Part shown: piece by piece, positions 51,039 through 59,390 of the stretch
How positions within the stretch are numbered: the stretch's first letter is position 1
How the letters are laid out: each line of letters starts with the position of its first letter
Made by a program: the position numbers and the translations under genes
Notes under the pieces: model-generated
Told to the model about the DNA's origin: nothing
What the model saw: only the letters and a program-made list of their open reading frames with translations
The model's database searches: none
DNA from: Nitrosopumilus sp.
Lineage (GTDB): Archaea > Thermoproteota > Nitrososphaeria > Nitrososphaerales > Nitrosopumilaceae
Length of the DNA: 64,000 bases
NCBI GenBank assembly: GCA_965214775.1
Contig: OZ243974.1
Span: 864,001-928,000 of the forward strand
Direction of reading: 5' to 3'

Positions 51039-51047
51039 TTATTCGTA

Positions 51048-51626
51048 ACCATATGTGTCTCAAAAACAAAATTCAGATGGTACCAAGATAAAAGGCAATG
51101 CAAACAGACAGATTAGCGCAAAAAAAAGGATATGTGTGAAATCAAAGGCGGAGCAGCAGTATGTCGGCCTGGACGTGCACAAGGAGTCCATCCAGGTCGC
51201 GGTGATGGACAAGGACGGCAAGGTCCTGGGGAATACAAAAATAAGCAACAGGAACAGCGAGATAAGAGAGATGTTTGCAAAGATTCCGGATAACACCAGG
51301 TGCGTCATGGAGTCCTCGTATGCTAAAGAAATAGATGGCCTTCAGTCAGTGCATAGTGGACATGCGTGTGAAATGAACGTCATCATCATTATTATTATTG
51401 TCATTACAGTTAGAACTTTAATCTGCGTTGATGTAGTTGAGGGAGATCCTCGTTTAGTAACTGCAGAACGGTTCTGACAAATGGATGAAGAATGGTACTG
51501 AGGGAGATCCTCGTATAGATAAGTGTCCGACCTTCATTTTGTGATTGTCAGGAAGAGACCCCCAGCCAAAGCCATACTTCACAACACCGTTACGCGTGGA
51601 ATCCTTATAAGCACGACACATAGATA
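51048..51626 (+). mobile_element. Internally deleted IS110/IS1111-type element, copy 1
   Basis: YVGLDVHKESIQVAVMD...VMESS RuvC-like N-terminus; subterminal IR TATGTGTC/GACACATA; TA at both junctions; long downstream non-coding end. Confidence 0.85.
51411..51541 (+). ncRNA. Candidate bridge/seekRNA, copy 1
   Basis: Two stem-internal-loop units, each capped by the hairpin GAGGGAGATCCTC; partial matches to the target and donor junctions (folded by eye). Confidence 0.6.
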
Positions 51627-51984
51627 CAACATCAGTCCTTTTTATACTGACAAGCCAACTTTTCTGGGCAGCATCTTATGATCAGATGCCCTTGCAGACA
51701 TGACTGAGCATCAGACATTTGTGATCAGTCATTGCAGGATTGGAATTTGCTGGGGTGATCCATTATCGGCATCTTGGTCAAAGAATTTCGATGGAAATCT
51801 TTTTTGATCTTGCCTGCTTGATGTAACACATGGACTCCAAATCTACGCCTGCACACAATATGGATCTTGCAAAAGCCATTGCCATGATTAAGGAGAAGGA
51901 CAAGGAGATCACCCTGCTGAAAAAGGAGAAGGACAAGCTTCAGGCAAGGCTTGCCATGTACGAGAGTCCCAACATGCCCAGCAC
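51627..51984 (+). pseudogene. IS66 left end and truncated transposase start
   Basis: Near-identical to 60465-60920 but lacking the 93-bp MITE; breaks off next to the serpin stop. Confidence 0.88.
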
Positions 51985-51987
51985 AGA

Positions 51988-53250
51988 TCAGGTCTGGGGG
52001 CTGGGATCCGTAACCCTTCCCATGAACAGGATGGCGCCGCTCTCGTCATCCTGTATGATGAAGACGAACGGGCGGTCTGCGATAAAGGGCACCGGCGGCG
52101 GCGGTGCTGAAGTTGTTGTGACAACAACGGCAGTCACGGCCGCTGCCTCCGTCCCCTCCTCATTTATATCTACAAACGCCTTCTGTGCCGACTTGCTTAC
52201 GTACAGGTTTTCATCCGATACGTCTGCGATGCCCGAAAGATCGGCTTTCTCGGGATCAAACACGTCCGCCACTCCGAGCCTCGCCAAAGGATCTGTAAGA
52301 TCATAGTATGTCTCCATCCTGAACTTTGGCATCGACACCTCCACGTCCGTCTGCAGCATGTCTTTATTCCACTTCTGTATGAGCCCAGCAGAAAGCGTCT
52401 CCTGCAGCGGATCCATCCCGTCCCTGTCTGCCGGCAGTATTACCAGCATGGAGAGTCGATCACCCTTGTATGGAAGCCTGAGCATCTGCACGTCGTCCTG
52501 CTGCGTATAATCGAACATGCCCACCACGTTCATAAAGTCTGTCCTGACGCTCTGCGTGCCGTCCTTCCAGAACTCGGACTCGCGCGTGTTTTCCTCCGGA
52601 AACTGCGTCACCCACGTTCCCTTGAAGTATATAGCGTTTGTCAGGACAAGCGCGGTCAAACTATTTACATCCTCGGGCGTAAGTATCTTCTTTATCTTTT
52701 CGCGCGTCTTCTCAGACGCCCAGCTGTTTATCCTGTCCGTGCTGCCCTGCGAGTCTTTAAAGTCAACGCGCTCGATGTCGGCAAGGTATGTGCCGCGTAT
52801 GGTATTCACATACGAGTCATGCGGTGCAAGCCAGTCGGCAAGCCACATCGAGTTTGCCAGCTCCAGCGTGGCATATGGATCGTGTCTGGCAATAGAGGAC
52901 ATCGTGTGTGCAGTGGCGTTGTGGCGCGCCTGCTCGTCGGGTTCAAAGCCAAATGCCGCCTCTATCTGCCCTGCACTGTCGCCTCTTGCCCCCTCGTACA
53001 GCATGGAAAAGACCACGTATATGCTGGTAGGGGAGAAGAAGATGTTCTCGTCACTGTCTGCTGAGACCAGCTTATAAAAGTCGACTGCAAAGCCGTTGTT
53101 TGCAGACGCGATATCCTCTGGAATCGTAGCGGATCCTGGCTGTAGAGATGCAACTATGGAATGCGGTACCGTCGTTTCGGCGTACAAAAGGACGGATGCC
53201 GCAACCACAACGGCGGAGACTGCCGCTATGGCATAGAGGCGACTGTTCAC
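51988..53250 (-). CDS. Secreted serpin (serine protease inhibitor)
   Basis: Signal anchor; NIFFSP, NAIYFKGTW, hinge EEGTEAAAVT and FIADRPFVFII..ILFMGRVTDP. Confidence 0.96.
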   Translation of the reverse strand: MNSRLYAIAAVSAVVVAASVLLYAETTVPHSIVASLQPGSATIPEDIASANNGFAVDFYKLVSADSDENIFFSPTSIYVVFSMLYEGARGDSAGQIEAAFGFEPDEQARHNATAHTMSSIARHDPYATLELANSMWLADWLAPHDSYVNTIRGTYLADIERVDFKDSQGSTDRINSWASEKTREKIKKILTPEDVNSLTALVLTNAIYFKGTWVTQFPEENTRESEFWKDGTQSVRTDFMNVVGMFDYTQQDDVQMLRLPYKGDRLSMLVILPADRDGMDPLQETLSAGLIQKWNKDMLQTDVEVSMPKFRMETYYDLTDPLARLGVADVFDPEKADLSGIADVSDENLYVSKSAQKAFVDINEEGTEAAAVTAVVVTTTSAPPPPVPFIADRPFVFIIQDDESGAILFMGRVTDPSPQT

Positions 53251-58604: not shown

Positions 58605-58658
58605 AATATTCTTGTGGGATCTTTAATTCATTTAATACTTACGATCCGGATTAACGAT

Positions 58659-58780
58659 TGTTTCATATGAAAATTAGTTCCGCCCCTCATTAGTATCCTT
58701 CTCCATCCATTTTGGGTTGCTTTTCCTGATCGCATCTGCGGCCTTCCAAGCCATCCCCGGGGTATTGTAGAGGATAATTG
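58659..58780 (-). pseudogene. IS481 3'-end remnant
   Basis: Reverse strand reads KAADAIRKSNPKWMEKD, followed by a TIR-like end. Confidence 0.75.
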
Positions 58781-58783
58781 GTA

Positions 58784-59384
58784 ACCATATGTGTCTCAAA
58801 AACAAAATTCAGATGGTACCAAGATAAATTGCAATGCAAACAAACAGATCAGCGCAAAAAAGAGGATACGTGTGAAATCAAAGGCGGTGCAACAGCAGCA
58901 ACAACAGTATGTCGGCCTGAATGTGCACAAGAAGTCCATCCAGGTTGCAGTGATGAACAAGAACCGGAGGATCCTGAGGAACACAAAGATAAGCAACAAG
59001 GAAAGCGAGATAAAGAAGATGTTTGCAAAGAAGAGGGGAAGGTCCAAGACCGCAGTGGCCGCAGCATCCAAGCTGCTGCGTATATCATACTGGATGCTAA
59101 AGAAGGAGATGACCTTCAAGCAGTGCATAGGAGATATGTATGTGAAATGAACGTCATCATTATTACAGTTAGAACTTTAATCTGCGTTGATGTAGTTGAG
59201 GGAGATCCTCGTATAGTAACTGCAGAACGGTTCTTACAAATGGATGAAGAATGCTACTGAGGGAGATCCTCGTATAGATAAGTGTCCGACCTTCATTTTG
59301 GAATTGCCAGGAAAGACCCCCAGCCAAAGCCATGCCTCACAACACTGTTACGCGTGGAATCCTTATAAACACGACACATAGATA
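58784..59384 (+). mobile_element. Internally deleted IS110/IS1111-type element, copy 2
   Basis: N-terminus joined directly to the C-terminal KTAVAAASKLLRISYWMLK; same ends and non-coding region as copy 1 but a different deletion. Confidence 0.85.
59170..59300 (+). ncRNA. Candidate bridge/seekRNA, copy 2
   Basis: About three substitutions versus copy 1 over ~130 nt, more conserved than the coding remnant. Confidence 0.6.
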
Positions 59385-59390
59385 CAACAT

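Follow-up and report, generated by a model that had tools for sequence, protein, structure and literature searches.

Bridge RNAs and seekRNAs were described in 2024 from bacterial elements of the IS110 family (PMC11208160, PMC11187229), and the first of these reports predicts bridge RNAs for 93% of the IS1111 elements in ISfinder. IS110-family recombinases are already known from archaea, where one survey gives 662 of them, and a junction promoter has been described for bacterial relatives of the family. Here we analyze two short inserts in a 64,000-nt stretch of the genome of Nitrosopumilus sp. (assembly GCA_965214775.1, contig OZ243974.1, positions 864,001 to 928,000 of the forward strand; hereafter the window, G000:C1:864001-928000). 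The genome (G000) is a single contig of 2.83 Mb. With a probability of about 0.85, we conclude that both inserts are non-autonomous deletion derivatives, resembling miniature inverted-repeat transposable elements (MITEs), of an archaeal IS1111-type element of the IS110 family with a two-loop guide RNA.

Two deleted elements and their full-length relatives

The two inserts and their immediate landmarks are as follows (window coordinates).

51045 to 51047, + strand: GTA, outermost 3 nt of an IS66-like terminal repeat, severed from the remainder by copy 1; TA is the shared core dinucleotide
51048 to 51626, + strand: copy 1, a 579-bp IS110/IS1111-type element, internally deleted and MITE-like
51052 to 51059, + strand: left subterminal inverted repeat TATGTGTC, 8 nt, 100% match to its right partner, 4 nt from the end
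51605 to 51610, + strand: TTATAA, a TATA-like box, outward-facing, starting 22 nt before the right end
51615 to 51622, + strand: right subterminal inverted repeat GACACATA, 8 bp, 4 nt from the end
58781 to 58783, + strand: GTA immediately left of copy 2, as read from the sequence
58784 to 59384, + strand: copy 2, a 601-bp IS110/IS1111-type element with an internal deletion unlike that of copy 1

Copy 1 is followed by CAACATCAGTCC and copy 2 by CAACAT. Both copies start with ACCATATGTGTC and end with CACATAGATA. A preliminary description, made from the letters alone, had placed two inserts at the same GTA/TA of an IS66-like repeat, and both junctions were located. It had also reported differing internal deletions and many substitutions, in agreement with the differing deletions and the 81% identity over 617 aligned columns found here. 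Its setting for copy 2 stood only in part: CAACAT does follow, but those 6 nt are all that precedes an IS481-like element, in place of a continuous IS66 sequence. Because this IS481-like insert is flanked by a 16-bp repeat, copy 2 must originally have abutted the left end of the IS66-like element at 60466.

Conservation between the copies is uneven. The RNA part is the best conserved (124/129 identical, 96.1%), the left ends agree at 51 of 53 positions and the right tails at 75 of 80, and the dead N-terminal coding remnants share 171 of 218 positions (78.4%). The N-terminal transposase fragments match the NCBIfam model NF033542 with E-values of 9e-08 (copy 1) and 4.5e-06 (copy 2), the gene fragments scoring 31.6 and 26 bits, and copy 2 retains the C-terminal end of the gene besides its N-terminal fragment. 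An in-frame GTG (51055-51057) inside TATGTGTC is the start of the transposase frame in full-length copies.

Six full-length copies of about 1375 bp were identified in the genome by BLAST, and in five the frame is open over 377-378 codons. These elements have 7 nt ahead of the GTG start and about 240 nt of non-coding DNA after the stop. Five of the full-length copies are 98-100% identical and carry the guide core AACC, a term explained below. The 376-aa protein of a full-length copy matches NF033542 ('IS110 family RNA-guided transposase') with 230.2 bits against a cut-off of 140, its residues 42-363 covering profile positions 1-341 of 343, so that the family assignment of the preliminary description holds. 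Sequence matches to the ISCro4 and IS621 recombinase chains in PDB have E-values of 3.3e-10 and 5.6e-09. Residues D46, E92, D131, D134, P285 and S290 are invariant in an alignment of this protein with four relatives; the catalytic role of the DEDD residues, assigned to an N-terminal RuvC-like domain, and of the serine in the C-terminal motif G..P....S[GA] is taken from the published description of the family. The C-terminal motif reads GMVPSVRNSA in this genome and GLVPSVRSSG in the related locus L008.

The 579-bp form is present in seven copies, with 96.4-100% identity over positions 1-579 (four are 100% identical and two more at least 99.7%), an identical deletion, and left flanks that are all different. 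One shared deletion at seven sites indicates that this form spread after the loss of its gene. Together with the presence of gene fragments only in the window copies, it bears out their proposed non-autonomy. The N-terminal remnant of the 579-bp form has only 67% amino acid identity to the resident transposase, and its parent was therefore probably a different autonomous lineage that is now absent. A second 601-bp copy (genome 2797099-2796492; 89.6% identity) carries the guide GACC beside the flank TAGGTC. Partial pieces of the element also occur in the genome.

Of 61 related genomes, 10 (the present one counted) contain relatives of the protein, and 483 relatives were confirmed in a scan that took one genome for each species. 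Among the best 80 of these 483, metagenome-assembled genomes (MAGs) of Nitrosopumilaceae, Nitrosopumilus and Cenarchaeum show 49-90% identity, Bathyarchaeia, Archaeoglobi and Methanomassiliicoccales 35-41%, and bacteria about 31-33%. The closest named relatives are thus Nitrosopumilaceae MAGs, in keeping with the thaumarchaeal host that had been proposed. The genome also contains other IS110-family genes, only 28-36% identical to the one studied here.

Genome 403974, 1130069, 1983065, 2022661, 2030492, 2634590, 2746850 and 2751022: further IS110-family genes

The predicted two-loop RNA and its guide segments

The conserved non-coding part of both copies contains a predicted RNA with two domains, delimited by a covariance model and an alignment fitted to it (A5). 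In the following, a slash marks a junction.

51423 to 51466, + strand: loop-1 domain, predicted to bind the target (covariance model and alignment A5)
51428 to 51437, + strand: loop 1, 5' side, TTGATGTAGT, complement of the right-flank top strand, (TA)CAACATC, with GATG as its variable core
51453 to 51461, + strand: loop 1, 3' side, TTTAGTAAC, equal to the left flank GTA plus the element's first two bases (AC)
51483 to 51528, + strand: loop-2 domain, predicted to bind the donor (covariance model and alignment A5)
51488 to 51498, + strand: loop 2, 5' side, AAGAATGGTAC, in which ATGGT is reverse-complementary to the left end ACCAT
51514 to 51523, + strand: loop 2, 3' side, TATAGATAAG; ATAGATA/A equals the right end plus the left end's first base, the predicted circle junction
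about 59181 to 59287, + strand: RNA domains of copy 2 (covariance-model match at genome 923176-923305, window 59176-59305, 137.4 bits)

Loop 1 is closed by the helix CUGCG (51423-51427)/UGCAG (51462-51466) and contains the hairpin UGAGG (51438-51442)/CCUCG (51448-51452). Loop 2 is closed by GGAUG (51483-51487)/UGUCC (51524-51528), with the hairpin UGAGGG (51499-51504)/UCCUCG (51508-51513). The covariance model was built from eight sequences (alignment A4, the truncated locus L012 being excluded) and searched against 95 related loci, which bear L numbers here. It gives 36 matches, and a same-strand transposase match ends at most 30 nt upstream of 34 of them; the other two are L040 (11-142), without a transposase match, and L024, with a C-terminal match only. 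In the present genome the model gives 23 matches, of which 15 are complete.

In alignment A5, the share of paired cells is 93.4% for helix 1, 98.8% for helix 2, 98.8% for helix 3 and 80.8% for helix 4; pairs changed on both sides number 4, 3, 3 and 4, respectively. The four helices together are paired in 92.3% of the cells, against 85.7% with shuffled columns and 36-54% with slid partners. Compensatory changes on both sides affect 14 of the 21 base pairs, a number reached by 0 of 500 shuffles. Five base pairs are most often G-U, which suits an RNA of the + strand only. Of the two stems drawn in the preliminary description, the first stands, as do both hairpins. The second, ATGAAG/CTTCAT, gave way to GGAUG/UGUCC: it is paired in 64.7% of the cells, against 98.8% for the new stem, to whose structure the alignment had been fitted. 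The loop strings quoted there (TGATGTAGT, ATAGATAA, and ATGGT in copy 1, which is ATGCT in copy 2) and the twice-used hairpin GAGGGAGATCCTC are all present, and the covariance model that it had proposed as a check yields a conserved two-loop structure with compensatory changes. An Rfam scan of window positions 50000-64000 (E-value up to 10) returned four weak matches, none on the inserts and all far under the gathering scores.

The four loop segments were taken from the alignment and the flanks from the loci, the score being the longest exact run between a guide and its partner. True pairs were compared with 20,000 permutations among non-redundant elements, repeated guide strings being counted once. 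An automatic search for subterminal repeats by the longest inverted k-mer was noisy and was replaced by ends defined through the conserved motifs TATGTG and CACAT[AG]G[AG][TA][AG] (by eye for L010). Loci without a definable end were excluded, namely L057, L062, L052, L058 and L060 on the left side and L012, L037 and L060 on the right side. Mean runs of true and mismatched pairs were as follows.

Loop 1, 5' side (reverse complement) against core plus right flank: n=24, 6.04 vs 3.49, 0 of 20,000 permutations
Loop 1, 3' side against left flank plus the element's first two bases: n=19, 6.21 vs 3.82, 0 of 20,000
Loop 2, 5' side (reverse complement) against left end: n=12, 4.17 vs 3.42, 65 of 20,000
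Loop 2, 3' side against right end: n=14, 6.93 vs 4.58, 0 of 20,000

These tests uphold the earlier proposal that loop 1 fits the target and loop 2 the ends and the circle junction. The predicted junction is CATAGATA/ACCATATG, that is CACATAGATA/ACCATATGTG. Among relatives, the 5' side of loop 2 reads ACGGT where the left end is ACCGT (L041) and ACAAA where it is TTTGT (L010), and the 3' sides ATGGATA, AAGGTAA, ATGGGTA and ATGGGAG each fit their own right ends.

Within the lineage of the present genome the scaffold stays the same and four bases change along with the site, this guide core tracking target positions +4 to +7:

Guide core GATG: target CAACATC (core match CATC)
Guide core AACC: target ATAGGTT (core match GGTT)
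Guide core ATCC (L036): target ATAGGAT (core match GGAT)
Guide core GACC: target (A)TAGGTC (core match GGTC)
Guide core AAAC (L050): target ACAGTTC (3/4 match)

The covariation of guide and target that had been put forward as a test is thus observed both inside this genome and across relatives.

Insertion sites and neighboring elements

Of 28 left-end hits in the genome, 25 have GTA directly before the junction. Window copy 2 and every one of the seven 579-bp copies are followed by CAACATC (once CAACTTC), which stands at the start of the terminal repeat in IS66-like elements and in some small repeats; the eight deleted-form copies with a GATG-type guide (8/8) sit at CAAC[A/T]TC ends. The five intact full-length copies precede A[T/C]AGG[T/A]TAGCCCCTGCC, the terminal-repeat start of a 112-bp MITE, their site being GTA/ATAGGTTAGCC at its tip. 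This MITE has terminal repeats GTAA[T/C]AGG[T/A]TAGCCCCTGCCTAG and tens of copies in the genome, and at one locus both of its ends are occupied. The tabulation of full-length copies and their sites, proposed earlier, accordingly places all five intact copies at the target of their own guide. A third class of right flank starts ACAGCTCGGGCTCTGGAAG, and a third repeat family begins GTAACAGCTCGGGCTCTGGAAGTTCAGG (also given as GTAACAGCTCGGG). Site-specific insertion (here into a few classes of right-flank repeat), a shared core dinucleotide (TA) and tips without terminal inverted repeats, traits of the IS110 family, are all present. As for the window copies, their 19% divergence, differing deletions and differing left flanks agree with the earlier claim of independent insertions, not one duplication.

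Genome 795492-795603, 1139184-1139295 and 2403082-2403193: examples of the 112-bp MITE

Occupied ends amount to 6 of 21 for CAACATC and 1 of 46 for CAACTTC (Fisher's test, 0.003), the counts comprising the ends found by pattern and one end that the pattern missed. In the IS66-like subfamily with CAACATC ends (IS66-A), an insert is present at 5 of the 6 left ends and at 0 of the 4 right ends (Fisher's two-sided test, 0.048), and the terminal repeats of both ends are identical for 37 nt.

Genome 915627, 924466, 1167280, 1210807 and 2666814: IS66-A left ends, occupied
Genome 1240022: IS66-A left end, free
Genome 926762, 1227840, 2669274 and 2699636: IS66-A right ends, all free

Only at a left end would the outward-facing TATA-like box of the insert be directed into the IS66 genes. 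In some targeted elements the terminal repeat starts with ATA instead of GTA (genome 2699636, 945078, 1058691, 335131, 1462206 and 2806478). Such tips could be the footprint of a host element that left an occupied site with the last three bases of the insert (..GATA); they could equally be a plain G-to-A change.

Several rearranged copies have break points at a GTA inside the element. The right end is joined to GTA/ACTGCAG (position 411, 3' side of loop 1) in three tandem arrangements and to GTA/TAGATAA (about position 467, 3' side of loop 2) in one. It looks as if the guide-coding DNA itself had been used as a pseudo-site, yielding modules of 169 bp.

Genome 1166534-1167279, 2398112-2397367, 2401544-2403081 and 635534-634050: tandem partial copies
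Genome 69298-69470, 114826-114990 and 2249426-2249597: solo 169-bp modules starting GTA/ACTGCAG
Genome 1198046-1197640: reciprocal 1-410 fragment, ending GTTTTGTA/CGAATTT

Other elements surrounding the two inserts in the window are the following.

51037 to 51044, + strand: GATTATTC, apparent left 8-bp target duplication of an IS66-like insertion, with its partner at 62766-62773
51627 to 51978, + strand: truncated IS66-like left part of about 350 bp, starting CAACATCAGTCC, 100% over a 70-nt probe
59391 to 60455, + strand: IS481-like element of 1065 bp, inserted across the junction of copy 2 and the IS66-like element
60466 to 62765, + strand: full-length IS66-like element (sequence and IS66 model), target of copy 2 at its left end

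The end of the truncated part near 51978 is the point where similarity to the copy at 60466 stops, as judged from translations of open reading frames. The right end of the full-length IS66-like element is intact (GTACAACATCAGG, minus strand, 62753-62765). Its transposase frame is in two parts (60783-61841 and 61912-62475), which match NF033517 with E-values of 5.8e-22 (78.3 bits) and 3.3e-07 (29.7 bits), both under the cut-off of 180. A weak Rfam match to MIR4372, a plant microRNA precursor (61825-61955, minus strand; 32 bits against a gathering score of 100, E-value 0.025), is most likely a chance hairpin in the gap between these frames. The terminal repeats of the IS66-like elements start GTACAAC, and other copies in the genome have 8-bp duplications right outside the GTA, such as AGGCAGAC at 327374/329473. 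We take GTA tips and 8-bp duplications to be typical of IS66.

The sequence GATTATTC occurs directly outside the GTA left of copy 1 and again outside the IS66-like right end at 62765, and the pair looks like the target duplication of one IS66 insertion. Its two halves are now 11.7 kb apart, which points to a rearrangement between IS66 copies. Between them lie the truncated IS66 left part, copy 2, the IS481-like element and the full IS66-like copy, as well as, on the minus strand, a serpin-like gene and a gene for a 1785-aa protease-like protein. The IS481-like element is bordered by an unusually long 16-bp direct repeat, CACATAGATACAACAT (59375-59390 and 60456-60471), and scores 170 bits against NF033577, under the cut-off of 224. 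It is abundant in the genome (more than 100 BLAST rows and about 12 full-length copies at 99-100%). The minus strand carries a fragment of a related element at 58659-58747.

Mechanism, alternatives and known systems

These observations suggest the following model. The full-length element, about 1375 bp long, has its DEDD/Ser transposase gene 7 nt from the left end, and the roughly 240 nt of 3' non-coding DNA would specify a two-loop bridge/seek RNA of the same strand. Loop 2 would read the element's own ends, its 5' side being complementary to the left end and its 3' side equal to the right end plus the TA core. Judging from complementarity, the 5' side of loop 1 would pair with about 7 nt of the right flank, and its 3' side would represent the left flank, TA and the element's first two bases. 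The + strand RNA would bind a transposase tetramer, loop 2 pairing with the joined ends of the circle and loop 1 pairing with the insertion site. Production and binding of the RNA may be assumed by analogy with the established mechanism of the family. Recombination at the TA core would then insert the element into the terminal repeat of another transposon, directly after its GTA, the guide core GATG fitting GTA/CAACATC, the tip of one IS66-like subfamily. A target inside a tip would also fit a left guide that matches only GTA plus AC, because the sequence beyond a transposon tip is arbitrary. The deleted copies were presumably moved in trans by the resident transposase or by a lost, closer parent. 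They may also hitchhike on, block or activate the IS66-like elements, the first two of which effects the preliminary description had proposed.

Of 21 distinct right-end tails, 17 have a TATA-like box that begins at -22 or -23. With the box at the right end and the in-frame GTG at left-end positions 8-10, a circle would set the box about 27 nt upstream of the GTG. The circle junction may in this way bring a promoter before a leaderless transposase start, and the box would be the archaeal counterpart of the junction promoter known from bacterial relatives. In the chromosome, the right-end box probably faces the captured transposon.

A number of observations weigh against the proposal of guide-carrying, non-autonomous elements. 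The pair counts lean towards the model structure because alignment A5 was fitted to it, and the folding of single sequences is unremarkable (z-scores of -1.19 and -0.59) and gave no help, for which reason covariation was used. Some right-flank matches are poor (a run of 3 in L039, L057 and L064, and of 4 in L050, L008, L087 and L011). The left-flank guide in the present genome fits only GTA (plus AC), because the left flank lies outside the targeted repeat. No autonomous copy with a GATG guide occurs in the genome; this and the 67% identity of the remnant make the present-day mobilization of the deleted copies uncertain. A transposase acting freely in trans with either RNA should have produced cross-guided insertions, and none was observed: the deleted copies (7/7) and the full-length copies (5/5) are all at the target of their own guide. 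This argues for an RNA with a preference for acting in cis or for a burst driven by the lost parent. Finally, contigs of four DNA runs from one study over 50900-51800 break at repeats and show no circle junction or empty site, a result that is uninformative.

The inserts might be dead relics, decayed from once-autonomous IS110-type copies, with the matches between loops and sites a fossil of the ancestral guide RNA. The window copies do lack most of the transposase gene, copy 2 was later struck by the IS481-like element, and the absence of an autonomous GATG-guide copy fits as well. However, a near-identical 579-bp form with one deletion at seven sites and differing left flanks indicates recent movement after the deletion. 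Between the two forms, conservation is 94-96% in the ends and the RNA part, compared with 78% in the coding remnant, and the second 601-bp copy has another guide that suits its other flank. We consider decay alone improbable. It is similarly doubtful that the copies traveled with IS66 as a unit, or by segmental duplication or homologous recombination between IS66 copies. The excess of occupied left over right IS66-A ends, with repeats identical for 37 nt, would suit such a history, and so would the rearranged IS66 pair in the window with its GATTATTC duplication 11.7 kb apart. Against this, the left flank of each copy differs right up to the GTA, and the right flanks represent three contexts or more, namely the left end of IS66-A, the repeat starting CAACATCAGGCCCTCCGTAAAATC (1788099) and CAACATCTAGTTTG (2409556). 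The window copies, moreover, diverge by 19% with different deletions, and an IS66 transposase would find no IS66-like repeat to act on at the left end of the insert.

A protein, not an RNA, might also choose the site by recognizing GTA plus a short motif, the likeness of loops and flanks being copied target or end sequence. All elements do share the fixed GTA/TA at the junction, and guide-coding DNA apparently serves as a pseudo-site (GTA/ACTGCAG, GTA/TAGATAA), so that these stretches do resemble sites. Yet near-identical proteins are associated with differing targets and differing 4-nt cores (AACC at 98-100% identity, ATCC in L036 at 80%, AAAC in L050 at 90%), and the matching segments sit in internal loops of a helix scaffold kept by compensatory changes. 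The 5' segments are complementary and the 3' segments identical to the DNA, which is the seekRNA order as published (PMC11187229), and RNA guidance has been shown by experiment for bacterial members of the family. Choice by the protein is thus very improbable.

Beyond the guide-carrying elements themselves, a more far-reaching and tentative idea, which we think may well be wrong, is that this lineage parasitizes other transposons. Its subfamily guides would be aimed 3 nt inside the tips of IS66-like elements, of the 112-bp MITE and of the third repeat beginning GTAACAGCTCGGG; transposase-less guide-carriers would be its most successful forms; its RNA would prefer to act in cis; and the right-end box would fire outward. 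If so, the strict tie of guide and target would mean that the RNA acts preferentially on its encoding DNA, the box would drive a leaderless transposase message in the circle, and its reading into the captured transposon could explain why left IS66 ends are occupied and right ones free.

The two inserts and their relatives make a clear archaeal family with the bridge/seek logic, present in the ammonia-oxidizing Nitrosopumilaceae and with relatives in Bathyarchaeia, Methanomassiliicoccales and Archaeoglobales. They suggest that a transposase-less element can retain its own guide, and they offer a case of natural reprogramming, in which a 4-nt loop change accompanies a new insertion site within one genome and among close relatives. 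For annotation, they account for a set of repeats and for split IS66 ends in such genomes. For tool building, they point to compact orthologues with a target rule legible from the genome (right-flank guide, GTA, TA core). The known mechanism is unchanged; its range is widened and testable natural variants are supplied.

IS4321 and IS5075 (Partridge and Hall 2003) reportedly insert in the terminal repeats of Tn21-family transposons at one position and in one orientation. They likewise are IS1111-type elements fixed inside the terminal inverted repeat of another transposon. The present elements differ in that their hosts are IS66-like elements and two MITE-like archaeal repeats, cut 3 nt from the tip, and in that several guide variants aim at several repeat families within one lineage and one genome.

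The described seekRNA elements of the IS1111 group (ISEc11, ISKpn4, ISPa11 and ISPst6; Siddiquee et al. 2024, PMC11187229) resemble ours in several respects. They have a DEDD transposase, a long non-coding region with the RNA downstream of the gene and a short left end (PMC11187229, PMC11208160), and subterminal inverted repeats with short terminal extensions, given as 7-17 bp in the group (PMC11208160). In their seekRNA, as here, the segment complementary to the top strand lies 5' of the one complementary to the bottom strand, and relatives differ in the sites they choose (PMC11187229). Unlike these comparators, the present elements reside in archaea (Nitrosopumilaceae and other archaeal MAGs) and have a subterminal repeat of only 8 bp; L009, L051, L055, L056 and L087 carry subterminal repeats ATGTGAAT/ATTCACAT. 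The layout (3' RNA, 8-bp subterminal repeats, strand order) would class the element as IS1111-like, with the motif GL.P....S[GA], given for IS1111 transposases (PMC11187229) and present in relatives, as a putative sign at the protein level. The bridge RNA of IS621 (Durrant et al. 2024, PMC11208160; structures 8wt6 and others) is also described with two loops, one for both strands of the target and one for both strands of the donor ends, with a shared core dinucleotide and with programmable guides. In contrast to the present case, it lies in the left end upstream of the gene and its order of strand matches is reversed (PMC11208160), and the similarity of the IS621 protein is distant (5.6e-09, C-terminal part only).

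ISPpu9 and MITEPpu9 (Pares-Guillen et al. 2025, PMC12288879) offer a further parallel, being described as an IS110-family element and a small non-autonomous module bounded by copies of its ends, with solo and tandem modules; our 169-bp modules resemble the modular circles of that report. However, the small RNA Ssr9 of that module is presented there as a non-guide RNA dispensable for transposition, whereas here the deleted elements carry the guide. In addition, the target of the deleted elements differs from that of the resident full-length copies, and the 169-bp modules start at a GTA internal to the guide-coding DNA. Among the titles and abstracts listed by full-text searches there was no account of the present family or of a guide-carrying non-autonomous derivative, though the ISfinder-wide supplements of PMC11208160 and PMC11187229 may list related archaeal elements. 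Taken with these systems, the present one is an archaeal case of a known kind of RNA-guided element, and its variant feature is the MITE-like forms that carry their own guide.

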